A DNA stretch of 7,182 nucleotides from Pseudomonas phage 17897. This document shows positions 1 through 7,182 of the stretch, piece by piece (the first letter of the stretch is position 1; every line of letters starts with the position of its first letter). Under the pieces are notes generated by a model. The model saw nothing but the letters and a program-made list of their open reading frames with translations, was not told the origin of the DNA and made no database searches. Made by a program: the position numbers and the translations under genes. The stretch lies in sequence record OR621025.1; one strand, given 5' to 3'.

Positions 1-12
1 TTCGCATAATGT
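1..12. repeat. Terminal direct repeat copy 1: TTCGCATAATGT. It matches the XerC-binding arm plus the first 3 nt of the central region of proteobacterial dif sites (...TTCGCATAA|TGTATA...).
   Basis: The window has an identical 12-mer at 7171-7182. From memory, Xanthomonas inovirus attP cores read TATACATTATGCGAA, the reverse complement of TTCGCATAATGTATA, and the Pseudomonas dif XerC arm reads GATTCGCATAA. Confidence 0.7.
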
Positions 13-115
13 GCAGACGTTACGTTAGGCGCAGCCCGACCGAGGGGAGAGTCACCAGTCCGGAGAATCGCTCAGCGTCCGGACTGGTGATTTACACGTA
101 ACGTCCGTTATGCGA
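2..115 (+). other. Long nested imperfect hairpin (cruciform-capable). The pairings are 2-9 with 108-115 (tcgcataa/ttatgcga) and 16-25 with 96-105 (gacgttacgt/acgtaacgtc). An asymmetric 6-nt/2-nt internal loop lies between them. There is an inner perfect 13-bp inverted repeat, 52-64 with 78-90.
   Basis: Reverse-complement matches were verified base by base. In the packaged plus-strand ssDNA this would fold into a stem whose base is a dif-like XerC-arm duplex. Confidence 0.7.
52..90. repeat. Perfect 13-bp inverted repeat TCACCAGTCCGGA / TCCGGACTGGTGA with a 13-nt loop. It is the inner stem of the junction hairpin.
   Basis: Seen directly in the sequence. Confidence 0.9.
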
Positions 116-124
116 TGCCGCTTT

Positions 125-248
125 GGTACCGTTGCAGGATCCTGCAGAACGACCTGGTCGAAAATATTGGTACCATTTTTCGGTGGCAGTGGTACCATTT
201 CCGTCGAGCTCGAGCACGACCTGGTCGAGAATACGGTACCAAAAGGAG
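125..248 (+). promoter_or_regulatory. Iteron or operator-like array immediately upstream of the 254 gene. Four GGTACC hexamers lie at 125, 169, 191 and 235, spaced 44, 22 and 44 bp apart (about 4, 2 and 4 helical turns). There is a 14-bp perfect palindrome TGCAGGATCCTGCA (133-146). Two 26-bp direct repeats, ACGACCTGGTCGARAATAYGGTACCA (149-175 and 217-241), each contain the palindrome CGACC-T-GGTCG. A 10-bp palindrome TCGAGCTCGA lies at 204-213. The RBS AAGGAG is at 243-248.
   Basis: The repeats and palindromes were counted by hand. The helical phasing of the GGTACC copies is the notable point. This is a candidate repressor or initiator binding array, or an origin. Confidence 0.6.
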
Positions 249-253
249 CCGCC

Positions 254-514
254 ATGCTTGTCAAACTCCCCGATGAATCCCCCGACTTCGTAGAGAAACT
301 CAAGGAACAGACCGGTGCGACCACGGCTGCCGGTGCCTATCGGTTCGCTGCTGAGCGGTACGGGTCGCTGACCTATCAGCTCAAGCAAGCCATGGATGAA
401 CTGGCGAGGTTGCAGACCCGGTGCAACGTCCAGCAGCAGATCATCGACAACGCCCGCGCCTCTGCCTCTTCGCTGCTTGACCACGTCGCCCAAGGCGATC
501 TTCTCCAGGGCTGA
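254..514 (+). CDS. Hypothetical 86-aa protein. It has a possible ribbon-helix-helix-like N-terminus ([19 protein letters not shown]...) followed by a helical, coiled-coil-like C-terminus.
   Basis: ATG at 254 follows AAGGAG with a 5-nt spacer. The longer track ORF (110..514) would run through the repeat array and is unlikely. The stop is TGA at 512-514. Confidence 0.6.
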
Positions 515-568
515 ACGTCCCTCCGAACTTTCCCTAGTCAGGTGCCGCGCTCCCGGCTCGTCGGATCA

Positions 569-605
569 GCTTCGCCGATCCGGCGAACGGAAGCACGGGC
601 GAAGC
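569..605. other. GC-rich stem-loop: GCTTCGCC (569-576) pairs with GGCGAAGC (598-605). There is an alternative inner hairpin CGCCG-atc-CGGCG (573-585).
   Basis: Inverted repeats seen directly. Part of the intergenic hairpin cluster 515-725. Confidence 0.6.
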
Positions 606-644
606 GAACACTTGACGTTGCACCCCCTGAAACAGCCTCCGCAA

Positions 645-679
645 GGGAGGGAGGGGAAGCTCTATCTCCCCTGCCTCCC
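645..679. other. Imperfect 14-bp inverted repeat. The purine-rich arm GGGAGGGAGGGGAA (645-658) pairs with the pyrimidine-rich arm CTCCCCTGCCTCCC (666-679), with 12 of 14 complementary positions.
   Basis: Seen directly. The strand-asymmetric purine/pyrimidine arms recall packaging-signal and origin hairpins of filamentous phages. That link is inference. Confidence 0.5.
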
Positions 680-705
680 GAGCCCTCGGCGGCAAGAGCG
701 GGATA

Positions 706-724
706 GTAAGGGCAGCGCCCTTAC
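706..724 (-). terminator. Perfect hairpin GTAAGGGC-agc-GCCCTTAC at the 3' end of the minus-strand unit. The stop codon of the 721..918 ORF lies within the stem.
   Basis: 8-bp GC-rich stem with a 3-nt loop. The following U-tract is weak (tatccc), so an intrinsic-terminator role is plausible but not certain. Confidence 0.45.
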
Positions 725-918
725 GACTTTCTGATGCGCTTGCAGCTCACTACGAATTCAGCTTTTGGCATCGCATCGACGGACCGCCAGGCTTTTACGA
801 TTTCTTGGCCGATTTCTTGCCCGGCTTGCATGCACGCCTCTTGCGTGGCGAATCCGTCGATTAGGTGTGTTTCTCGTTGACTGCCAAGCGTGACTAGCAC
901 AAACAGCATCCATTCCAT
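721..918 (-). CDS. Hypothetical 65-aa protein. It has a hydrophobic N-terminus ([13 protein letters not shown]) followed by a soluble domain of about 50 aa. It lies downstream of the repressor and is transcribed in the same direction.
   Basis: A strong RBS AGGAG sits 5 nt upstream of the ATG on the minus strand (plus-strand CTCCT at 925-929). A hairpin follows immediately after the stop. Confidence 0.6.
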
Positions 919-966
919 GAGGGCTCCTGGGTGGCTTTGCGGGACTCTCGATCTGGCCCCGGAGGG

Positions 967-1010
967 GTGGGGGTGCTGTTACACCCCCACTTTACCGCAC
1001 GATCGTGCGG
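967..1010. other. Two adjacent hairpins between the repressor and the 65-aa ORF. The first is GTGGGGGTG-ctgtta-CACCCCCAC (967-990, 9-bp stem, followed by TTTA on the plus strand). The second is the 16-bp perfect palindrome CCGCACGATCGTGCGG (995-1010).
   Basis: Seen directly. They may act as a plus-strand read-through terminator that protects the repressor from antisense transcription. They may also be origin or packaging structures. Confidence 0.5.
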
Positions 1011-1018
1011 CGGTCGGA

Positions 1019-1372
1019 CTAGCGAAGAGCCTCTTGCTCGTACCCGAACAGCACTCCTTTCAGGGCTATCCGTGCTTGATTCCTGATCTCCGCCGGCAGG
1101 GCTTCGAATCTCCGCAATATCGGACGCATGTCGTCAGATATCAGTAGTTCGCTCTCGTCCATCAAGAGTTCGTCTGTGGTCACGCCCAGCACCTTGGCCA
1201 TGGCCAGGGCTTTGTCTGCGGACGGCATTCCATGGCCCGCTTCGTAGCCCGTATAGCTGGACTTGCTCACGCCTGCGGCCTCGTACACCTGCTGTTGTGT
1301 CAAGCCTCGGGCGGCCCGAAATTTTTTCAGGTTTGCTGCAAGGGTCATTTGTCGCTCTTTGAGTGTTTTCAT
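1019..1372 (-). CDS. XRE-family (Cro/C1-type) helix-turn-helix transcriptional repressor, 117 aa. The stop is fixed at 1019. The preferred start is the ATG giving MKTLKERQMTLAANLKKFRAARGLTQQQVYEAAGVSKSSYTGYEAG... In-frame alternatives lie upstream: ATG at 1459 (MDKGHH..., AGGA 2-3 nt upstream) and TTG at 1474 (the track start).
   Basis: Classic HTH_XRE signature (GLTQQQV.EAAGVS...Y...E). It is divergent from the Rep gene, as in phage immunity regions. The 29-aa upstream extension is low-complexity with a lower GC3, and it overlaps a good rightward promoter (-10 CATAAT at 1457-1462). No SD precedes the 1372 ATG, so the transcript may be leaderless or weakly initiated. Confidence 0.8.
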   Translation of the reverse strand: MKTLKERQMTLAANLKKFRAARGLTQQQVYEAAGVSKSSYTGYEAGHGMPSADKALAMAKVLGVTTDELLMDESELLISDDMRPILRRFEALPAEIRNQARIALKGVLFGYEQEALR

Positions 1373-1432
1373 GACTGGGTCAGCGTAGGTGCTGGCTGTT
1401 TGTACAGTTCCAGAATCCTGTGCATTTTCCCC

Positions 1433-1462
1433 TTGATTCTTGTGATGACCCTTGTCCATAAT
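1433..1462 (+). promoter_or_regulatory. Candidate rightward promoter for the Rep operon: -35 TTGATT (1433-1438), 18-bp spacer, -10 CATAAT (1457-1462). A tandem TTGATA-TTGACA pair (1486-1497) lies just downstream.
   Basis: Hexamer matches to the sigma70 consensus seen directly. Its position in the divergent repressor/Rep intergenic region is what one expects. Confidence 0.4.
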
Positions 1463-1506
1463 CCTGCCAATCAACTACCGAAATGTTGATATTGACAGGG
1501 ATTTTC

Positions 1507-2643
1507 ATGTTCATCGACTGGCTTAGCGTTTCACAAGAGCACCTTCACGACCTCCCGGTCGTGTGCGACGTGTTCACGCTCACAGTCGATGCCAATACCC
1601 ATGAGGTTCTGAGTACCCGCCAGCCGTGGTTCAAGCATGAGGGCAGTTACTCCACGTCGATCAAGATCAGTGTCCAGGGTCGTAAGGTTCGTGTTGAGGG
1701 GAATCCCAGCCGAATCGACCGCCAAGACAATCTTTTTGGCTACGTCACCATCGAGCAGTGCATTGCCGTCTACAACCAGCTTTTGGCTGAGTACGGCCTT
1801 CCCGCTTTCACCAGGTGCACTGAAATCCATCTCCGCGACGGTGCATCCGGCGCTCGCCCTGGCGATTGGGTTGCTGATGGATGCGCTATCGACCGCATCG
1901 ACCTGACGACGAATGTTTCCGTAGGGGAGGGCAACGTCCTCGCCTACCTGCGCGGCCTGTCTACCCAGCGTATTGGCCACTCTGTTGGCTACCTGTATCC
2001 GAATGGCCGGACCGTTGATTGGACTGCTGCCGGTAAAAGGAAAGGTGGTGTCCGTCTCCAGTATCGAAAGGCGTACGACAAAGCCTTTGAAATGGGCGAG
2101 CACCTTCGCCCGCGCGTTCTGCGCATGTTCGGCGATGAATCGCCAGAGCTGGCCTACGTGGACCAGCTGATTTCGTACTGCAACCAGCATGGCGTTGTGC
2201 GGCAAGAACAGGAGCTGAAACAGGAGTTCCTGAGCCGTGAAGGTCTTCGCTACTGGGGCCTTTTCAACGAAAACCGTCTCCGCGACATACACGATGAATT
2301 CCTGGCGGTGGACAAGAAACTGAAGGTAACGGCCATGGACCTTGCGACCATTTCTCAGCAACTGATTGCCGAGGGTGTTGTTACCAGCACCTATGCGGCC
2401 AACATGACCGCGATGGTCGCTATCAATTGGAGCAACGGGCAGCCTTTCGACAAGAACAACCGTTCCCTCCAGAAACATCGTGCACGTCTTCGTCAGATCG
2501 GTATCGACATCGCTAACCCTTGCGATACCAGCCGCTTCACGCCCGTCATTGTGCGCCAGGCTCGGGAGGTTACGAAAACCTACGATCTTCCGATTCCGGA
2601 CTGGTATCGCCGTCCTGTTGGCCATCTGCGGTTGGTGGCCTGA
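1507..2643 (+). CDS. Rolling-circle replication initiation protein of the Rep_trans / phage pII-CRI type, 378 aa. An alternative start is the ATG at 1483, which adds 8 aa.
   Basis: From memory, the motifs AIDRIDLTTN and GYLYPNGRT...VRLQYRKAYDKAFE resemble the conserved RxDxAxD and TLYxGSR...RIYDK active-site region of pT181 RepC-like Rep_trans initiators. These are also found in Pf3- and Neisseria-type inovirus Reps. ATG 1507 is preceded by AGGGA at 1496-1500. It is the first gene of the plus-strand operon, divergent from the repressor. Confidence 0.8.
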   Translation: MFIDWLSVSQEHLHDLPVVCDVFTLTVDANTHEVLSTRQPWFKHEGSYSTSIKISVQGRKVRVEGNPSRIDRQDNLFGYVTIEQCIAVYNQLLAEYGLPAFTRCTEIHLRDGASGARPGDWVADGCAIDRIDLTTNVSVGEGNVLAYLRGLSTQRIGHSVGYLYPNGRTVDWTAAGKRKGGVRLQYRKAYDKAFEMGEHLRPRVLRMFGDESPELAYVDQLISYCNQHGVVRQEQELKQEFLSREGLRYWGLFNENRLRDIHDEFLAVDKKLKVTAMDLATISQQLIAEGVVTSTYAANMTAMVAINWSNGQPFDKNNRSLQKHRARLRQIGIDIANPCDTSRFTPVIVRQAREVTKTYDLPIPDWYRRPVGHLRLVA

Positions 2644-2715
2644 CGTGCTCGCCCCGACTCTCGAAGCCCTCGCGCTGTTCGCCGGTGCCGCCACTCTGAT
2701 TCACGCACTGGGCGT

Positions 2716-2964
2716 ATGGGCGCGCTCATGAGAACGGTCAGTTTCCAGGGTGCGACCCTCTCGGCCAGTGAACGCCGCTCGCTTGAGCTTCGCCAGCGTG
2801 CCATGGCGGCGGTGAATCAGTCCGTGTTGCAACAGCAAGTTGCGGCCACGCTCCAGGCCCTGGAGCAGCACAAAGAGCAGGGCGGCAAGCCCGAAAAGGT
2901 CTGGTCCACGATCTCCAACGAAAAGGGCACGCCGTTCCTAGGCGACGTGTTCGGGTGGCCGTGA
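2716..2964 (+). CDS. Hypothetical 82-aa protein, Q/A-rich and helical (...ERRSLELRQRAMAAVNQSVLQQQVAATLQALEQHKEQ...). An alternative start is the ATG at 2728.
   Basis: The ORF lies directly downstream of Rep. Its stop TGA (2962-2964) overlaps the ATG of the next gene (TGATG). Confidence 0.55.
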   Translation: MGALMRTVSFQGATLSASERRSLELRQRAMAAVNQSVLQQQVAATLQALEQHKEQGGKPEKVWSTISNEKGTPFLGDVFGWP

Positions 2965-3062
2965 TGAAGCTCAAACGTCTTCGCTGCCCTCGTTGTGGCC
3001 GTTTCGTTTGTGTCGGTCTTCGTATCTGCACTCATTGTGATGCTTATGGGCGGTGGCTCTGA
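2964..3062 (+). CDS. 32-aa Cys4 zinc-ribbon microprotein MKLKRLRCPRCGRFVCVGLRICTHCDAYGRWL, with CxxC-x11-CxxC and a basic N-terminus.
   Basis: It is not in the ORF track because it is too short. It is bounded on both sides by TGATG stop/start overlaps (2962-2966 and 3060-3064). This places it in a translationally coupled chain of four genes. Confidence 0.55.
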   Translation: MKLKRLRCPRCGRFVCVGLRICTHCDAYGRWL

Positions 3063-3325
3063 TGGCTATCGAGATCAACCGCCAGTCGTACCTGTCGCTC
3101 CGGTCCTCGTTGGAGCTTGAACTGCTCGATGCCGGTATCGACTCGCCGGACCTGCTGAGCCGGCTTATGCGCCACGTGCTTGCCGCCGAATCCGCGACCC
3201 GCGCTGAGTCGCAAACCGTTCGCCGTGCGTTCGTCACGGCCCGTAGAAACCCGCTGCTGGGCGCAATCCCTCAGCACTCCCAGGGGCGCACAAATCGCCC
3301 GTATATCCGCAAGAGGAAACCCTAA
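3062..3325 (+). CDS. Hypothetical 87-aa protein (MAIEINRQSYLSLRSSLELELLDAG...RPYIRKRKP) with a basic C-terminal tail.
   Basis: ATG at 3062 overlaps the preceding TGA. The track start GTG 3053 is less likely. Its stop TAA overlaps the ATG of the ssDNA-binding gene (TAATG at 3323-3327). Confidence 0.6.
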   Translation: MAIEINRQSYLSLRSSLELELLDAGIDSPDLLSRLMRHVLAAESATRAESQTVRRAFVTARRNPLLGAIPQHSQGRTNRPYIRKRKP

Positions 3326-3633
3326 TGCCCTTCGTCTATCTCGGCCTGACTCGTGACGCCGGAACATCGAAAAAGACCGGCAACGCCTATGACATTTCGG
3401 TCGTGCACTTCGCTGTCGATGCGACGCAATCGACTCGGCCTGATCGCAAGTTTGCCCTCGGTCTGGAGCCTCAGAATCTGCCGATCGCGCCGGAAGCGGT
3501 GAGCCAGTTCCAGCGTGTTGAGCCGTTGAGTTCGGTCAACTTCGAGTTCGAGCCGGACCCTCGGAACATGCAGCGCAACCGTATTTGCGGCGTTAAGCCG
3601 GTGCCGAAAGCGGCTGCTCAGACGGCGTCGTAA
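3325..3633 (+). CDS. Gene-V-like ssDNA-binding protein, 102 aa.
   Basis: Strong RBS AAGAGGAAA at 3311-3319. It sits immediately before the coat module. The N-terminal segment ...LTRDAGTSKKTGNAYDISVVHFAVD resembles, from memory, the Pf3 gene 5 protein ...FTDSVRQGTSAKGNPYTFQEGFLHLED. The flexible Pro/Ala/Lys C-terminal tail (KPVPKAAAQTAS) is like Pf1 g5p. Confidence 0.7.
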   Translation: MPFVYLGLTRDAGTSKKTGNAYDISVVHFAVDATQSTRPDRKFALGLEPQNLPIAPEAVSQFQRVEPLSSVNFEFEPDPRNMQRNRICGVKPVPKAAAQTAS

Positions 3634-3669
3634 TTCTGGCTAATTATTAAGAATCAGGGGTGATCGAAA

Positions 3670-3813
3670 ATGGAAGCGGCAATGCAACTTTTAAGTTCGG
3701 TCACTTTTGAAAGTCTCACGGCGGTATACGGTTCCGGGTTTATCTTGACCTTTGCCGCATATGCCGTGGGTTTAAAAGTAGGAATCGTACTAAGTGCGAT
3801 CCGCAAACTATGA
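3670..3813 (+). CDS. 47-aa hydrophobic, single-TM protein MEAAMQLLSSVTFESLTAVYGSGFILTFAAYAVGLKVGIVLSAIRKL. It is a candidate pVII/pIX-type minor coat protein or a PfsE-like superinfection-exclusion peptide.
   Basis: SD GGGGTGA at 3655-3661 lies 8 nt before the ATG. It is not in the ORF track (too short). Its position between the ssDNA-binding and major coat genes matches gVII/gIX in Ff phages and PfsE in Pf4. Confidence 0.55.
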   Translation: MEAAMQLLSSVTFESLTAVYGSGFILTFAAYAVGLKVGIVLSAIRKL

Positions 3814-3825
3814 AAGAGGTGAATC

Positions 3826-3960
3826 ATGGCTGATATTTTCGGTGCGGTAGACTTTTCCAGCGTTTCCACCTGGGTCGTAAGTGCCGGTGTTGCGATCATC
3901 GGTATTGCGATGGCGTTCAAAGGGATCGACCTGGGCAAGCGCGGCGTTAAGAAGGCCTAA
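3826..3960 (+). CDS. Major coat protein (pVIII-like), 44 aa, with no signal peptide: MADIFGAVDFSSVSTWVVSAGVAIIGIAMAFKGIDLGKRGVKKA.
   Basis: RBS AAAGAGGTGA at 3812-3821, with an in-frame stop immediately upstream. It has an acidic N-terminus, a hydrophobic core and a basic C-terminus (K, KR, KK). This is the textbook inovirus coat layout. The length and signal-less form match the Pf3 coat. A strong terminator follows. Confidence 0.85.
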   Translation: MADIFGAVDFSSVSTWVVSAGVAIIGIAMAFKGIDLGKRGVKKA

Positions 3961-3969
3961 GGGCCAGGG

Positions 3970-3997
3970 CAGGGGGCTGAAAGGCCCCCTGTATCTT
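3970..3997 (+). terminator. Intrinsic terminator after the coat gene: CAGGGGGC-tgaaag-GCCCCCTG followed by TATCTT.
   Basis: Perfect 8-bp GC stem with a T-rich trail. It is positioned as the post-gVIII terminator that boosts coat mRNA in Ff phages. Confidence 0.7.
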
Positions 3998-4120
3998 ATG
4001 GAACCCTCTCAACTTACATTCACAGCGGCGGACCTTGCGCTGGTAGTTCACGCCCTGGTCTTCCATGGCGGGGTATTGGCAGCATGGGCATTTATCGCCG
4101 GTATGCGGCAGCGTTTCTAG
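3998..4120 (+). CDS. Possible 40-aa hydrophobic peptide MEPSQLTFTAADLALVVHALVFHGGVLAAWAFIAGMRQRF. It overlaps the pIII start by 37 nt.
   Basis: The ATG comes right after the terminator. No SD is present. It is TM-like. It may be real or may only be the 5' leader of the pIII gene. Confidence 0.3.
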   Translation: MEPSQLTFTAADLALVVHALVFHGGVLAAWAFIAGMRQRF

Positions 4121-5490
4121 CGTTCTCGTTTTTTCTCTCCTCTGAAGTTTCGTACTCCGCGACTCGAAAGAGCGTCACCGTGCCTAGTGCAAGTGTTGTT
4201 GCGCGCGGTGGCGGCTCTCCTTCTGTTTCCGGCCCATCTTTAAAGATTCCTGGCCAGCCTGGCGTTGAATACATTCCTCGATCTGGCGGCGGGGCTTCTG
4301 GCGTTCCCATCAAGATTATCCCGACGATTGATTTCTCTATTCCTAGGACGATCAAGGGGGGTGTTTCGTCGCTTAAAGGTGGTGTTGCTGGTGTTGCTGC
4401 CACCGCTGCGATGGCAATGGCTCTGGATAAGATTGGCGGTTTTATTGATGAAAACGGAAAGCCTGTAATCAAGAAGCCGCAAGGGGAAGTTCCGATTGAT
4501 GTATTTGGCTATAGGAGTTCTGCCTGGAGCTTCTGCAATACGTCTATATATCCGTCTCCCATGGGTTATATGGCATGCGCTCAGCCGCGCATAGAGTCTT
4601 ACGTGAGTTCTACTATTTCTTACAAGCTTCAGCCGGTCCCAAATAGTAGCGGTTATCGTGTCCTTTGGACTAATAACAAGACTGGTCAAGAGTCGCAGTT
4701 CTATGTTGAGGCGGTAGGTAATTGTCCGGGAATTTTGGTTGATTCGACCTGCTATCAGGAAGAGGTAATAAGCCCTTTCACTGATTCGGATTATGACAGC
4801 CTGACCGATACGTTGTCGGGGGTGGTGGACCCGAATTGGCTCAAGGACTTGTTAACTGCGACTTGTGAGGGGTCTTTGAATCCGGCTGCGTGCTATGACC
4901 AGATGTCTGAAACGACGCACCTTAGCGGCCCGTCCTCGGTGACGGGGCCTAAGACTTCAAGCACGACGACAACCACGAATCCTGATGGCACTACCAGCAC
5001 GACGACGAAGGACACTCAAACTAAGTATGAGATTAAGTATGGCGATAACTATATCGACTATACGGAAACGACCACGACTACGACAACGAAAGACGGTGAT
5101 AAAACTGAAGAGACGACTACGACTGACACTGACGACGTGACGGCAGAAGTTCCTCCCGAAGAGAAAGAGGAGGAGGGTGGTAGCTTTGAAGACTCTGAAT
5201 TTCCGGAAGTTAAGCCGTTCTATGAACAAAAATATGAGGATGGGCTGGAGGGTGTATGGCGTGACAAGCGCGCCGAATTTGAAGATACGGAGTTCATGAA
5301 ATTTCTCCAGGGGTTCATTCCGTCGTTTTCGGGGCGGTGTCCGGCATTTGGGCTGGATATGAATATTGCGTCTTGGGCGAACTATGGTTATCAGCAATTC
5401 GGGTCTATCTGCTATGTGCTTGATTTCGTGAAGGCGATTCTTATGGTTTCGGCCTTGTTCTTGTGTCGCGCTCTGATTTTCGGAGGTTGA
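4084..5490 (+). CDS. pIII-like minor coat/adsorption protein, 468 aa. It has an N-terminal signal peptide (MGIYRRYAAAFLAFSFFLSSEVSYSA), a Gly-rich segment, a Thr/Asp/Glu-rich linker and a C-terminal membrane anchor (FGSICYVLDFVKAILMVSALFLCRALIFGG).
   Basis: The domain architecture and its position after the coat gene and terminator fit pIII. The downstream pVI-like gene starts 2 nt after its stop. Confidence 0.85.
   Translation: MGIYRRYAAAFLAFSFFLSSEVSYSATRKSVTVPSASVVARGGGSPSVSGPSLKIPGQPGVEYIPRSGGGASGVPIKIIPTIDFSIPRTIKGGVSSLKGGVAGVAATAAMAMALDKIGGFIDENGKPVIKKPQGEVPIDVFGYRSSAWSFCNTSIYPSPMGYMACAQPRIESYVSSTISYKLQPVPNSSGYRVLWTNNKTGQESQFYVEAVGNCPGILVDSTCYQEEVISPFTDSDYDSLTDTLSGVVDPNWLKDLLTATCEGSLNPAACYDQMSETTHLSGPSSVTGPKTSSTTTTTNPDGTTSTTTKDTQTKYEIKYGDNYIDYTETTTTTTTKDGDKTEETTTTDTDDVTAEVPPEEKEEEGGSFEDSEFPEVKPFYEQKYEDGLEGVWRDKRAEFEDTEFMKFLQGFIPSFSGRCPAFGLDMNIASWANYGYQQFGSICYVLDFVKAILMVSALFLCRALIFGG
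4957..5182 (+). repeat. Low-complexity Thr-rich coding repeat (ACN codons: ACGACGACAACCACG...ACGACCACGACTACGACAACG...ACGACTACGACTGACACTGACGAC). It is followed by an acidic Glu/Lys stretch and encodes the pIII interdomain linker.
   Basis: Seen directly in the sequence. It is a likely hotspot for in-frame length variation. Confidence 0.7.
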
Positions 5491-5491
5491 T

Positions 5492-5830
5492 ATGGCTGGG
5501 GTTTTTAAGTTCTTTACTGCGCTGCTTGCTAAGATTGTTGGATTTGCAAAATGGCTGCTGCTGGTGTTCGCTCAGATATTTAAAGATGCGTGGAATATGG
5601 TTACGGATGTTGTTTGCTGGGTGTTTGAGCAGACGCTTTCTATTGCGGCCTCGGCACTGGATGCAATCGCGATACCGTTCAACCCGCAAACATATTATGC
5701 AATGATCCCAGCGGAGGCGGCTAACATGCTGGGCTATGTGGGTGTGCCTCAGGCTATAACGCTTATTGTCGGCGCTCTGGTCGTCCGATTCCTGTTGCAA
5801 ACTATCCCGTTTGTCCGCTGGGGGTCGTAA
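5492..5830 (+). CDS. pVI-like minor coat protein, 112 aa, multi-TM hydrophobic (MAGVFKFFTALLAKIVGFAKWLLLVFAQIF...).
   Basis: RBS GGAGG at 5483-5487. Its TAATG overlap with the Zot start and its size and position match pVI of Ff phages. Confidence 0.75.
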   Translation: MAGVFKFFTALLAKIVGFAKWLLLVFAQIFKDAWNMVTDVVCWVFEQTLSIAASALDAIAIPFNPQTYYAMIPAEAANMLGYVGVPQAITLIVGALVVRFLLQTIPFVRWGS

Positions 5831-6990
5831 TGATTAACTTGATCCTGGGCCAGCCTGGTGGCGGAAAGTCTCATGAGGCTGTTGTCTATCATGTTGTTCC
5901 GGCGTTGAATCAAGGGCGAAAGGTCATCACGAATTTGGCCCTGGATATGGACAAATTCAAAGCGTTTTTTCCGGAGTCTTGGCATTTGATTGAGCTTCGG
6001 GACTCTACTGTTGAAGTTTTCGAGAATGAAAGTGGCGAGGAGGAGAGTAGGGTAGTACGCCCGTTTAGCCGGGCTGACCACTATGCGGACCCTTGGCGGC
6101 ATCCTGAAGAGGGATTCGGGCCGTTGTATGTGATCGATGAATGTCACCTTTCGATACCGCTGCGCGGCACGCCTGTGCCGGTTGAGGAGTGGTATTCGCT
6201 TCATCGTCACGAACTGGCCGATGTGCTGTTGATCACTCAGAGTTACGGCAAGATCAACCGGGCAATTCGTGACCTTGTCCAGGTCGTGTATCGCTGTAAG
6301 AAGGCTACGGCTTTCGGCACCAATGATCGCTATATCCGCAAGGTCCAGGACGGTCTGCGCGGCGAGGTCGTGAATACCAGCATCCGGGAGTATCAGAAAC
6401 AGTTCTACGGATTCTGGAAGTCGCATACGCGGTCCTCGGCCGCAGGCCAGGAACTGGCCGCTAATGACATTGTGCCGATCTGGAAGCGCTGGCCGTTCAA
6501 AGGTGCTGCGCTGTGCTTCCTGATCGTCATCTGTCTGTCGACGTGGAACGTCACGCGGGAAAAGAAGCATGCGCCGCCGCCCAGGGTTCAGCCGGTGGCT
6601 GCGAGTGTCGACTCTGCGCCTGTAGGTGCGGCTCCAGCTGTTCCAGCGGCTCCGGTGATCGAGGCCAAGCCTCGGGGGCCTGAGCAGAAGTTACATCCGT
6701 TCCAGGGGCTGTCTATGCATCTGATCGCAACCATGCGTGGTAAGCGCTTTCGGGATGGTGTTGAGGAAGAGTTTCTGGGCGGTTTTATCCAGCTCGCGAA
6801 TAACGGGCAGCCGGTCAGTAAGGTGTCGTTTGATGACTTGCGCACCGCGGGTTATTCGATCACTTGGGAATCGCCGACGGTCGTTTCGCTGACGTATAAG
6901 GGCTTCGATATCGGTTACGTGGTAACGGATATGCCGCTGGTATCCGCAGCAAAGGACATCGCAGTAACCACGCCTGTGCAGGCGCCTTGA
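5830..6990 (+). CDS. zot: Zot/pI-family morphogenesis (assembly) ATPase, 386 aa.
   Basis: Walker A GQPGGGKS near the N-terminus. Walker B-like LYVIDECH. Single TM (AALCFLIVICLSTW) at about residue 220. A Pro/Ala-rich periplasmic linker follows, then a C-terminal domain. This matches the pI/Zot topology. Confidence 0.9.
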   Translation: MINLILGQPGGGKSHEAVVYHVVPALNQGRKVITNLALDMDKFKAFFPESWHLIELRDSTVEVFENESGEEESRVVRPFSRADHYADPWRHPEEGFGPLYVIDECHLSIPLRGTPVPVEEWYSLHRHELADVLLITQSYGKINRAIRDLVQVVYRCKKATAFGTNDRYIRKVQDGLRGEVVNTSIREYQKQFYGFWKSHTRSSAAGQELAANDIVPIWKRWPFKGAALCFLIVICLSTWNVTREKKHAPPPRVQPVAASVDSAPVGAAPAVPAAPVIEAKPRGPEQKLHPFQGLSMHLIATMRGKRFRDGVEEEFLGGFIQLANNGQPVSKVSFDDLRTAGYSITWESPTVVSLTYKGFDIGYVVTDMPLVSAAKDIAVTTPVQAP

Positions 6991-6997
6991 GGGAATT

Positions 6998-7022
6998 GGG
7001 AGGGCTCCCGCTTGCGGGAGGG
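6998..7022. other. GC-rich inverted/direct repeat GGGAGGGCTCCCgcttgcGGGAGGG just after the Zot stop.
   Basis: CTCCC/GGGAG arms with a direct repeat of GGGAGGG. It may be a terminator or an origin-associated structure. Confidence 0.4.
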
Positions 7023-7170
7023 ACCCGATTCCCGGCGGTGCCTGTGTTCTCGATTAACCCCTTTGACGGTCGTTCCAGGGTCAGCCCAAAGGCTCCAGGC
7101 CCTGGATATCTTCGCCCGTTGCCCAGCGTCGATTTCAGCGTCGGATGGTTCGGGGGTTCGCATCTCTGGC

Positions 7171-7182
7171 TTCGCATAATGT
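7171..7182. repeat. Terminal direct repeat copy 2: TTCGCATAATGT. A partial extra TTCGCAT lies 9 nt upstream at about 7156-7162.
   Basis: Exact match to nt 1-12. The sequence reads ggTTCGCATctctggcTTCGCATAATGT. Confidence 0.7.

Follow-up and report, generated by a model that had tools for sequence, protein, structure and literature searches.

Gene Content of the Phage

The window, which is the whole 7182-nt stretch of DNA analysed here, is a single complete inovirus unit, the filamentous phage Pf 17897 of Pseudomonas aeruginosa, and one phage unit accounts for 7170 nt of it. This phage has already been published with a length of 7182 nt, a GC content of 55.6%, and terminal repeats of 12 nt, as the representative of group 7 with its integration listed as "intergenic region" (Evseev et al. 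2023, PMC10675462). The GC content was 55.6% in the window and 65.7% in the host flanks. The features are listed in Table 1.

Table 1. Features of the 7182-nt window, numbered from its first nucleotide.
Feature	Position	Strand	Details
Left 12-mer copy, attL	1–12	+	Host GA immediately upstream
attP site 1, counterpart of CTXphi attP1	1–30	+	XerC arm 1–9; spacer TGTGCAGACG 10–19; XerD-like arm TTACGTTAGGC 20–30
Forked hairpin of the (+) single strand (predicted)	2–115	+	Fold −33.8 kcal/mol; z = −5.7
attP site 2 (inverted), counterpart of CTXphi attP2	91–118	−	GCATCGCATAA 118–108; spacer CGGACG 107–102; TTACGTGTAAA 101–91
Repeat-rich spacer	117–253		Four GGTACC palindromes; two copies of ACGACCTGGTCGARAATA; 11-nt perfect inverted repeat 122–132/233–243
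86-aa ORF	254–514	+	phrog_8031, E = 8e-38
65-aa ORF downstream of the repressor	721–918	−	
HTH_3 Cro/C1-type repressor	1019–1372	−	Pfam HTH_3, E = 8e-17
Rolling-circle Rep, G2P/Phage_CRI family	1507–2643	+	PF05144 and PF05155
Small phage ORFs	2716–3325	+	82 aa (phrog_7248); 35 aa (weak zinc-ribbon match); 87 aa (phrog_6290)
RstB-like ssDNA-binding protein	3325–3633	+	PF07459, 30.2 bits (cut-off 26.2); phrog_929, E = 3e-33
47-aa hydrophobic ORF, candidate pVII/pIX-type minor coat protein	3670–3813	+	
44-aa major coat protein	3826–3960	+	phrog_3354, E = 1e-25
pIII-like receptor-binding minor coat protein	4084–5490	+	Thr-rich linker; phrog_4544, E = 3e-128
pVI-like minor coat protein	5492–5830	+	Pfam DUF2523
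Zot/pI assembly ATPase	5830–6990	+	PF05707, E = 8e-25; phrog_197, E = 3e-77
Right 12-mer copy, phage–phage junction (tandem or replicative-form), not attR	7171–7182	+	

An earlier note on this DNA had described a complete inovirus with a repressor, Rep, an ssDNA-binding protein, coat proteins, pIII, pVI, and Zot, and all of these were confirmed by Pfam and PHROG. The Zot/pI ATPase, the coat proteins together with a rolling-circle Rep, the canonical gene order, and a genome size within 5–12 kb were those of Inoviridae/Tubulavirales. The complete strand bias that the note had claimed outside the repressor unit was also found, as the two ORFs of this unit were the only ones on the − strand. The repressor occupies the position of CTXphi RstR. 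Furthermore, the best matches of Rep were If1 gpII and inoviruses of Alteromonas and Vibrio cyclitrophicus, and the search at E < 1e-5 returned no CTXphi match. The major coat protein had no signal peptide, with an in-frame stop 3 nt upstream of its ATG. For the 86-aa ORF, no meaningful match was returned by a sequence search of the PDB.

The phage had been said to have neither integrase nor secretin, and this was borne out. Pfam gave no recombinase or secretin match for any sense ORF or any of the long antisense ORFs, and PHROG gave no integrase for the ten sense ORFs. In addition, no XafT-like protein was detected, and the ORFs scanned gave no further Pfam match. A tRNA-type att site was rejected, because an Rfam scan of the full 7182 nt was empty at E ≤ 1 and ARAGORN predicted neither a tRNA nor a tmRNA gene.

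Two non-coding regions were also considered. The repeat-rich spacer 117–253 is possibly a regulatory site; it is probably not a Rep-specific origin, since phage NEU2023 has the same region yet an unrelated Rep. The Ff-type nick motif TTCTTTAATAGTGGAC had no match in the window with up to 3 mismatches. Between convergent ORFs lies a covarying structured element (537–725, + strand), which is common to Pf1 and Pf4, with an identity of about 84% to the central part of Pf4 PA0719 and Pf1 orf110. It is a candidate minus-strand origin or packaging signal; the Pf replication paper mapped no origin in the matching region. A PA0719-like protein encoded by 537–722 was rejected, because the differences were spread evenly over the codon positions (8/12/11), the amino acid identity (69%) was lower than the nucleotide identity, and the matching frame overlapped ORF 254–514.

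Insertion at the Host dif Site

The identical 12-mers reported at the two ends were confirmed. The sequence TTCGCATAATGT occurred exactly twice, at both ends of the window and on the + strand, while 0.04 matches were expected per shuffle when at most one mismatch was allowed. The terminal repeat is not due to chance, because it constitutes 12 of the 28 bases of P. aeruginosa dif, GATTCGCATAATGT ATATTATGTTAAAT (Carnoy & Roten 2009, PMC2731167). Specifically, it comprises nine nucleotides of the 11-nt XerC-binding arm (TTCGCATAA) and the first three central nucleotides of dif (TGT). The 12-mer is thus part of dif, and the position at the host dif is newly recognised for Pf 17897. The ends of the published record appear to have been trimmed at this repeat.

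The flanking sequence was inspected for the option, one of two raised in the note, that the window was cut exactly at attL and attR. This option was right for the left end, where host GA is followed by the 12-mer and then by phage, so that the contig there has a dif/phage hybrid. However, it failed at the right end, where the phage starts again after the 12-mer: the 43 nt past the window are identical to window 13–55, and they are followed by exactly 100 N and then by 55 nt equal to window 7128–7182. Beyond this gap, the phage end (GC + TTCGCATAATGT) is joined to ATATTATGTTAAAT, which makes a perfect dif, GCTTCGCATAATGTATATTATGTTAAAT. Jointly, the left and right junctions rebuild the PAO1 dif 28-mer exactly. 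Therefore, the window ends at an internal phage–phage junction, and the true attR lies beyond the 100-N scaffold gap. Read from the sequence, the left hybrid site carries a 10-bp spacer and the right side is a re-created dif.

The arrangement in strain 17897, assembly GCA_022553095.1, is either a tandem array or a prophage plus a replicative form. The phage–phage junction comes from a short-read scaffold, and the same junction is expected from a tandem array and from a free replicative form. Being inserted at dif with no recombinase of its own, Pf 17897 has, at the sequence level, the properties of an IMEX.

Proposed Two-Site attP and Predicted Hairpin

The phage carries two inverted dif-like sites with unequal spacers of 10 and 6 nt, as in the CTX type. 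The XerD-like arm of site 1, TTACGTTAGGC, matched the dif arm TTATGTTAAAT at 7 of 11 positions. In the predicted fold, the arms of the two sites, 70 nt apart, pair with each other. The outer stem (2–11/106–115) consists of the XerC arm and TG, nt 12–15 (TGCA) are bulged on the top strand only, and a further stem (16–25/96–105) consists of four spacer bases and the inner XerD arm. A distal hairpin is formed by 51–91. In the subgroup of Pf 17897, the duplex part of the XerD arm extends over only 6 bp up to the fork (top TTACGTTAGGC, bottom-derived TTACGTGTAAA). The identity with dif is confined to the XerC arm TTCGCATAA and TGT; on the XerD side of the central region, the phage bottom strand reads CGTCCG and that of dif TATACA, with no shared bases.

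The forked-hairpin attP on (+) ssDNA was supported in silico by the fold, by covariation, and by a G·T bias. Among six Pseudomonas phages, pairing was kept at 100%, with three pairs changed on both sides, compared with 23–45% in slid controls. The analysis was extended to IMG/VR, GenBank, and GTDB, where 64 distinct hairpins were compared. In 63 of the 64, the site-2 spacer was 6 nt long, and the site-1 spacer ranged from 8 to 12 nt over the whole set. The four spacer bases adjoining the XerD arm were paired in 242 of 256 cells, with at least five covarying 4-mers. Moreover, G·T accounted for 115 of the mismatches on the + strand and A·C (a G·T as seen on the − strand) for 5, and this bias to the packaged strand indicates that selection acts on the single strand, although the hairpins are related and not independent, so that there were fewer evolutionary events than the covariation and G·T counts suggest. 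Relatives with a short hairpin had the stem TTACGTTAAAT, which agreed with the dif XerD arm at 10 of 11 positions.

The chromosomal arrangement of the relatives was also recorded. One of them (L069) is a true tandem array of two 7.6-kb copies that are 96% identical, and mixed arrays were found in two others (L055 and L061). A full dif stood at the end of nine prophage contigs. The relatives occur with two host dif variants, and the terminal repeat tracks each of them. A scan of genome contigs with a 17-base pattern gave at least 120 matches, which were mostly chance; among the matches listed, the only genuine ones were L155 (Stutzerimonas stutzeri), L165 (a Pseudomonadaceae MAG), and L218.

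Proposed Integration Mechanism and Alternatives

Taken together, Pf 17897 is probably a CTXphi-type Xer-exploiting element, which lysogenised at dif through a hairpin of its (+) ssDNA and the host XerC/XerD. Its lack of an integrase would then most likely be explained by insertion at dif by the host recombinases. In the packaged (+) strand, site 1 would pair with the inverted site 2, and the stem would imitate dif: the XerC arm would be duplex and the XerD arm partly so, and in the central region the bottom strand would have the canonical 6 nt and the top strand a 4-nt bulge. Host XerC would cut the top strand after TTCGCATAA and exchange it with the top strand of dif, and the common TGT would stabilise this exchange. 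We propose that no second exchange follows, because phage and dif have no base in common on the XerD side of the central region, and that the junction would be resolved by replication after the single XerC exchange. The left hybrid site may be dead because its 10-bp spacer masks it in duplex DNA, while the functional dif re-created on the right would be able to accept further copies. New phage DNA would arise from Rep-driven rolling-circle replication between tandem copies and not from excision. We infer for this phage that integration depends on XerC/XerD, proceeds by exchange of a single strand, and is irreversible, and that tandem copies give rise to new phage. In the life cycle of CTXphi, dif is re-created on the right, the left site is masked, and tandem insertions are the rule (PMC4439123; PMC4246890), which predicts exactly the layout seen for Pf 17897.

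Among the other explanations, the one to be taken most seriously is integration of the VGJphi type, in which the double-stranded replicative form recombines reversibly with dif by XerC through site 1 alone and the hairpin serves another purpose, such as a packaging signal or minus-strand origin. Such duplex integration would leave the same attL and attR sequences as those observed. Functional hairpins do exist in the intergenic regions of filamentous phages, for example the packaging signals of Xanthomonas phages (bioRxiv 10.1101/2023.12.30.573655), and the distal hairpin 51–91 could be a packaging signal. However, VGJphi has a single 29-bp attP, whereas Pf 17897 and its relatives always have two inverted sites, and a duplex site 1 would have a spacer of 8–12 bp (10 bp in Pf 17897), a spacing of the sort that inactivates the CTXphi sites in duplex DNA. 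In addition, the covarying bases are the very spacer bases that pair sites 1 and 2, and the XerC arm itself lies in the stem, which would be needless for an unrelated hairpin. As the G·T bias also reflects selection on the single strand, the VGJphi-type route is considered improbable.

Evseev et al. (2023) proposed "host-encoded integrases" (PMC10675462), and a tyrosine integrase acting in trans, from a helper prophage or as another host enzyme, might target a sequence that overlaps dif. Pf 17897 has no recombinase of its own, and P. aeruginosa genomes often carry integrase-bearing Pf prophages (PMC7549136). Nevertheless, the targets known for Pf integrases are tRNA, tmRNA, or direct-repeat sites (PMC7549136). 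The repeat of Pf 17897 matches exactly the XerC arm and the XerC-side central bases, the phage has XerC-like and XerD-like arms at dif-like spacing, and across the family the repeat follows each of the two host dif variants; this explanation is therefore very unlikely. Even less can be said for a circular replicative-form or episome contig, offered by the earlier note, whose ends would overlap by 12 nt with no chromosomal insertion. The phage-end/phage-start junction is present in the assembly, and the database entries of the relatives WX_Y and NEU2023 are genomes of free phages. But the window corresponds to 4172–11353 of its locus (L001) inside a 339-kb chromosomal contig, with host genes of 65.7% GC on both sides and half of dif on each, so that this reading was refuted and its chance is practically nil.

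Comparison with Known Phages

The CTXphi-type reading places Pf 17897 beside CTXphi, RS1, Ypfphi, and CUS-1phi, with which it shares the lack of an integrase, insertion at dif, two inverted dif-like sites, and the (+) ssDNA hairpin, predicted here. In CTXphi, attP1 has a 12-nt spacer starting with TGT and attP2 a 7-nt spacer, and the two inverted sites, about 90 nt apart, form a forked hairpin (PMC3089051). In both phages, identity to dif stops after the XerC arm and the central bases on its side, which read TGT, and both have a dif re-created on the right. The tandem arrays of CTXphi have a counterpart in the relative L069 and may also exist in strain 17897. The gene order is also the same, with a divergent repressor, Rep, an RstB-like protein, coat, pIII, pVI, and Zot, and no secretin. 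On the other hand, Pf 17897 has a Pseudomonas host, a hairpin of about 115 nt compared with about 150 nt, and spacers of 10/6 nt compared with 12/7 nt. The central bottom strand is fully paired in its predicted hairpin, with a top-strand bulge of 3–5 nt, whereas that of CTXphi is a mostly unpaired bubble, and the XerD-arm duplex of the Pf 17897 subgroup measures only 6 bp, whereas 9 of 11 positions can pair in CTXphi. Furthermore, its Rep is nearer to If1 gpII than to RstA, it has no toxin genes, and its major coat protein has no signal peptide.

The phages VGJphi/VEJphi and TLCphi/phiLf/Cf1c are likewise integrase-less, mostly filamentous, and inserted at dif by host XerCD. However, their attP is a single double-stranded site of 28–29 bp and they can excise, while Pf 17897 has two inverted sites, and the one used has a 10-nt spacer. 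Accordingly, it shows neither the single duplex attP that marks the VGJ type, roughly 29 bp long and with a spacer of some 7 bp, nor the features of the TLC type, an attP without XerD arm and XafT, as XerD-like arms are present.

The closest counterparts in P. aeruginosa are Pf 36-2, 42-1, 97-1, WX_Y/WX-Y, and NEU2023, which are inoviruses that likewise lack an integrase, measure about 7 kb, and share the attP hairpin, terminal repeats of 11–12 nt, and the gene order. The relationship is mosaic, as at most 34% of the window aligned to any of these nearest phage records, in line with the view that the phage is distant from Pf1, Pf3, and Pf4. The Rep was 46–64% identical to the Rep of the relatives, and that of NEU2023 was unrelated. 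The published accounts of Pf 36-2/42-1/97-1 and of phage Y (PMC10675462, PMC12456005) made no mention of dif, Xer, or a hairpin attP. Culture supernatants contained DNA of phage Y (WX-Y), according to the same account (PMC12456005). The Primolicivirus phages Pf1, Pf4, and Pf5 have the same host and the structured element of about 190 nt, and no nucleotide similarity to the window was found outside this element. They differ in that Pf4 and Pf5 have their own tyrosine integrase with tRNA, tmRNA, or direct-repeat targets, and Pf1 is non-integrative (PMC7549136).

Implications

In the review of Das (2014), the CTX-type class comprised only CTXphi, its satellite RS1, Yersinia Ypfphi, and E. coli CUS-1phi. 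Our results raise the prospect, which we judge evenly balanced, of a sizeable unrecognised CTXphi-type inovirus family in P. aeruginosa and its relatives, integrating as ssDNA at dif in tandem or mixed arrays and sharing with the integrase-bearing Pf1/Pf4 the covarying (+)-strand element, annotated PA0719, perhaps as a minus-strand origin or packaging signal common to Pseudomonas inoviruses. The roughly 64 distinct, architecturally uniform Pseudomonas hairpins would offer natural variation from which the rules of Xer hijacking could be approached, such as the spacer lengths, bulge versus bubble, and the XerD-arm duplex needed. Integration at dif would also explain the lack of integrase and the "intergenic region" location of groups 4–7 (Evseev et al. 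2023), as well as why repetitive sequence kept the integration site of phage Y from being mapped by PCR (PMC12456005). Such prophages should not excise, and arrays of them should build up at the replication terminus of P. aeruginosa, a major pathogen. In short-read assemblies, they should be collapsed or broken. Prophage calling is affected by all of these points.

Insertion at dif

The Zot gene of the window lies on a 339-kb contig of assembly GCA_022553095.1, and the window corresponds to nt 4172-11353 of L001, the locus cut from that contig. The identical end 12-mers described in the earlier note were confirmed: TTCGCATAATGT occupied nt 1-12 and 7171-7182, and the window contained no further copy. 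The left junction read ...cctttaGA / TTCGCATAATGT / gcagacg.... On the 3' side, L001 continued with 43 nt equal to window 13-55, exactly 100 N, and 55 nt equal to window 7128-7182, which joined directly to ATATTATGTTAAAT. The dif site of P. aeruginosa PAO1 is GATTCGCATAATGT ATATTATGTTAAAT (PMC2731167). Of the 11-nt XerC arm of dif the 12-mer contained 9 nt, followed by the first three central-region bases, and the 26-mer TTCGCATAATGTATATTATGTTAAAT occurred once in L001 (11540-11565). The junction sequences and the match to PAO1 dif therefore place the phage inside dif.

The earlier note had proposed either a circular contig or a prophage cut exactly at attL and attR. The circular contig was ruled out by the embedding of the window in the 339-kb contig. 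The exact cut held on the left, at attL; on the right, the phage end adjoins a phage start, so that the interpretation was partly right. Inspection of the flanking host sequence, which the note had suggested, revealed dif halves around the phage in L001 (GA on the left and ATATTATGTTAAAT on the right). The scaffold gap (L001 11397-11496) lay between 55-nt repeats of the phage start and phage end, which resemble the k-mer overlaps produced when an assembler meets a repeat. Such overlaps imply that reads backed both the phage-to-phage and the phage-to-dif joins, so the strain would carry prophages in tandem or, alternatively, a prophage together with a circular replicative form, which short reads cannot tell apart.

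Gene Content

The GC content was 55.6% in the window and 65.7% in the flanks. The genes between the two 12-mers formed the standard inovirus set (Table), and the scanned ORFs, long antisense ORFs included, gave no match to a recombinase or secretin domain, which agreed with the claim of a complete inovirus having neither integrase nor secretin. No tRNA gene or Rfam family was found in the window, nor was a (+) origin in a scan for the Ff-type nick motif (up to 3 mismatches).

Table. Genes and attachment-site features of the window
Feature	Position (nt)	Strand	Remarks
Site 1	1-30	+	TTCGCATAA / TGTGCAGACG / TTACGTTAGGC; spacer 10 nt
Hairpin stem 1	2-11/106-115	+ ssDNA	XerC arm + TG
Hairpin bulge TGCA	between the two stems	top strand only	
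Hairpin stem 2	16-25/96-105	+ ssDNA	four spacer bases + TTACGT
Fork, then distal hairpin	51-91	+ ssDNA	
Site 2	118-91	-	GCATCGCATAA / CGGACG / TTACGTGTAAA; spacer 6 nt, canonical for a dif site
65-aa ORF	721-918	-	after repressor
HTH_3 repressor	1019-1372	-	divergent from Rep
Rep, G2P/Phage_CRI	1507-2643	+	
Three small phage ORFs	between Rep and RstB-family gene	+	
RstB-family ssDNA-binding protein	3325-3633	+	PF07459, 30.2 bits (cut-off 26.2); phrog_929, E = 3e-33
47-aa hydrophobic ORF	between RstB-family and major coat genes	+	
Major coat protein	3826-3960	+	44 aa
pIII-like protein	4084-5490	+	
pVI-like protein	5492-5830	+	DUF2523
Zot/pI	5830-6990	+	

The major coat protein had no signal peptide, and an in-frame stop lay 3 nt 5' of its ATG; in related PHROG families the N-terminus is longer by 35-38 aa. 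The design is Pf3-like and suggests membrane insertion independent of a signal peptide. A 35-aa ORF (2955-3062, +) overlapped the ends of both adjoining ORFs and contained four cysteines (CPRC...CTHC), with weak zinc-ribbon matches under the Pfam cut-offs. In the pIII-like gene, ACGACGAC and ACGACTACGAC recurred as the units coding for a Thr-rich linker (4950-5125), and slippage at these units could alter the linker length. The stretch separating the repressor gene from the divergent Rep gene contained the direct repeats TCCAGAATCCTG and TCCATAATCCTG (1409-1466), which overlapped the sole sigma-70-like promoter match (1433-1462, +) and are candidate operators. Furthermore, nt 117-253, 5' of ORF 254-514, were dense in repeats: GGTACC four times (125, 169, 191, 235), two copies of ACGACCTGGTCGARAATA, and a perfect inverted repeat of 11 nt (122-132/233-243). 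This region looks regulatory rather than like a Rep-specific origin, because it is also present in NEU2023, whose Rep is unrelated.

Structured Element at nt 537-725

The window shared an element of about 190 nt (537-725, +) with Pf1 (orf110) and Pf4 (PA0719). Nt 537-722, flanked by convergent ORFs in the window, showed about 84% nucleotide identity to the middle of these genes and a lower amino-acid identity (69%). The 31 differences were spread evenly across codon positions (8/12/11); the Pf1 and Pf4 annotations treat the region as protein-coding, yet its substitutions had no codon pattern. Family loci, Pf1 and Pf4 yielded 31 distinct homologues, and the element had no Rfam match. In a 16-sequence alignment, 97.3% of the cells were paired (36-48% in slid controls), 18 of the 53 predicted pairs had changes on both sides, and the covariation score was reached by none of 500 shuffles. 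About 60 G·U cells assigned the structure to the + strand. A PA0719 start-codon mutant produced replicative form normally (PMC12328805). The element may reasonably be supposed to act as a minus-strand origin or as a packaging signal common to these phages.

Predicted Attachment-Site Hairpin

The predicted ssDNA fold of nt 1-125 was a forked hairpin (-33.8 kcal/mol, z = -5.7) matched by none of 200 shuffles. The fold was likewise predicted for six Pseudomonas phages and for silverpheasant213, which is metagenomic. In a six-sequence alignment, all 132 pair cells were paired, compared with 23-45% in slid controls, and three pairs had two-sided changes (A-T/G-C, C-G/G-C and G-C/A-T/G-T). A pattern scan of IMG/VR gave 129 sites on 119 contigs. 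For 107 of the sites, an XerC arm in inverted orientation lay no more than 200 nt away, at a spacing of either about 79 nt or about 103-107 nt; two matches at about 123 nt were discounted as spurious.

Among 64 distinct hairpins, which are related to each other so that counts exceed the number of independent events, 63 had a site-2 spacer of 6 nt and 62 had a top-strand bulge of 3-5 nt, with site-1 spacers of 8-12 nt. Beside the XerD arm, four spacer bases were paired in 242 of 256 cells, and these 4-mers differed by lineage (AACG, GACG, GGGA, GGCG, CAGG). The stem of the short-hairpin class has TTACGTTAAAT, identical to the dif XerD arm at 10 of 11 positions, which indicates that TTACGT in the window is the inner XerD arm. 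Stem mismatches were G·T on the + strand in 115 cases and A·C, the appearance of a - strand G·T, in 5. This excess points to selection for pairing in the strand that is packaged, a requirement of the CTX model. In the short-hairpin class, an extra TTCGCATAA preceded either site 1, by about 185 nt, or the re-created dif (loci L024, L037, L082, L086, L089, L093, L123, L126, L072, L015, L049 and L105).

Comparison with CTXphi

In El Tor CTXphi, attP1 is AGTGCGTATTA-TGTGGCGCGGCA-TTATGTTGAGG (12-nt spacer) and attP2 is AATGCGTATTA-TACGCCA-TTATGTTACGG (7-nt spacer). The two are inverted about 90 nt apart and form a 150-nt forked hairpin in (+) ssDNA, which is recombined with dif by XerC alone (PMC3089051). 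The window shared this two-site design, with TGT common with dif on the XerC side and no bases in common on the XerD side. However, in the predicted fold of its subgroup just 6 bp of the XerD arm were duplex ahead of the fork, and the central region was duplex with a one-sided bulge instead of a bubble. Its Rep was also closer to gpII of If1 (45% identity), and to inoviruses of Alteromonas and Vibrio cyclitrophicus, than it was to RstA.

The main alternative is that the phage integrates as duplex DNA through site 1, the hairpin being unrelated to integration. This would leave unexplained the covariation of XerC-arm and spacer bases between two separate sites, as well as the kept spacer length of site 1, which is expected to be inactive in duplex DNA. 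With hairpin integration, Pf 17897 would depend on host Xer, would be exchanged by XerC only and would insert irreversibly.

Relatives and Prophage Arrays

The sequence is already published: Pf 17897 represents group 7 of Evseev et al. 2023 (PMC10675462, Table 2), and the window agreed with it in length (7182 nt), GC content, host species (P. aeruginosa) and terminal repeats of 12 nt, and likewise had no integrase. That study entered the integration site as "intergenic region" and stated that integrase-less Pf phages "may" use "host-encoded integrases", naming neither dif nor a hairpin. All Pf prophages in the set of Fiedoruk et al. 2020 had their own integrase and were set against XerCD/dif phages of other genera (PMC7549136). 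The literature searched appears to contain no recognition of the integration mode of Pf 17897. The closest phage-collection records (WX_Y, 36-2, silverpheasant213, 42-1, 97-1 and NEU2023) each covered at most 34% of the window; the IMG/VR contig L034 was 96% identical across 6.9 kb.

Contig L069 carried two 7643-nt copies (96% identity across 5.8 kb) and is a true tandem array. Different family members with differing attP spacers lay head to tail in L055 (1298 and 8365) and L061 (minus strand, 3302 and 10522); these are mixed arrays at dif and recall the TLC-RS1-CTX arrays of V. cholerae. A complete dif, in the Pseudomonas form or as TTCGCATAATCTATATTATGTTAAAT, ended nine prophage contigs. In CTXphi, a functional dif is re-made on the right, masking affects the left site when the DNA is duplex, and tandem insertions are frequent and required for new single strands by rolling-circle replication (PMC4439123, PMC4246890). 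The arrays and the dif at contig ends are the outcome predicted by this life cycle. By its predicted integration mode, Pf 17897 would be a new, Pseudomonas-borne CTX-type IMEX.
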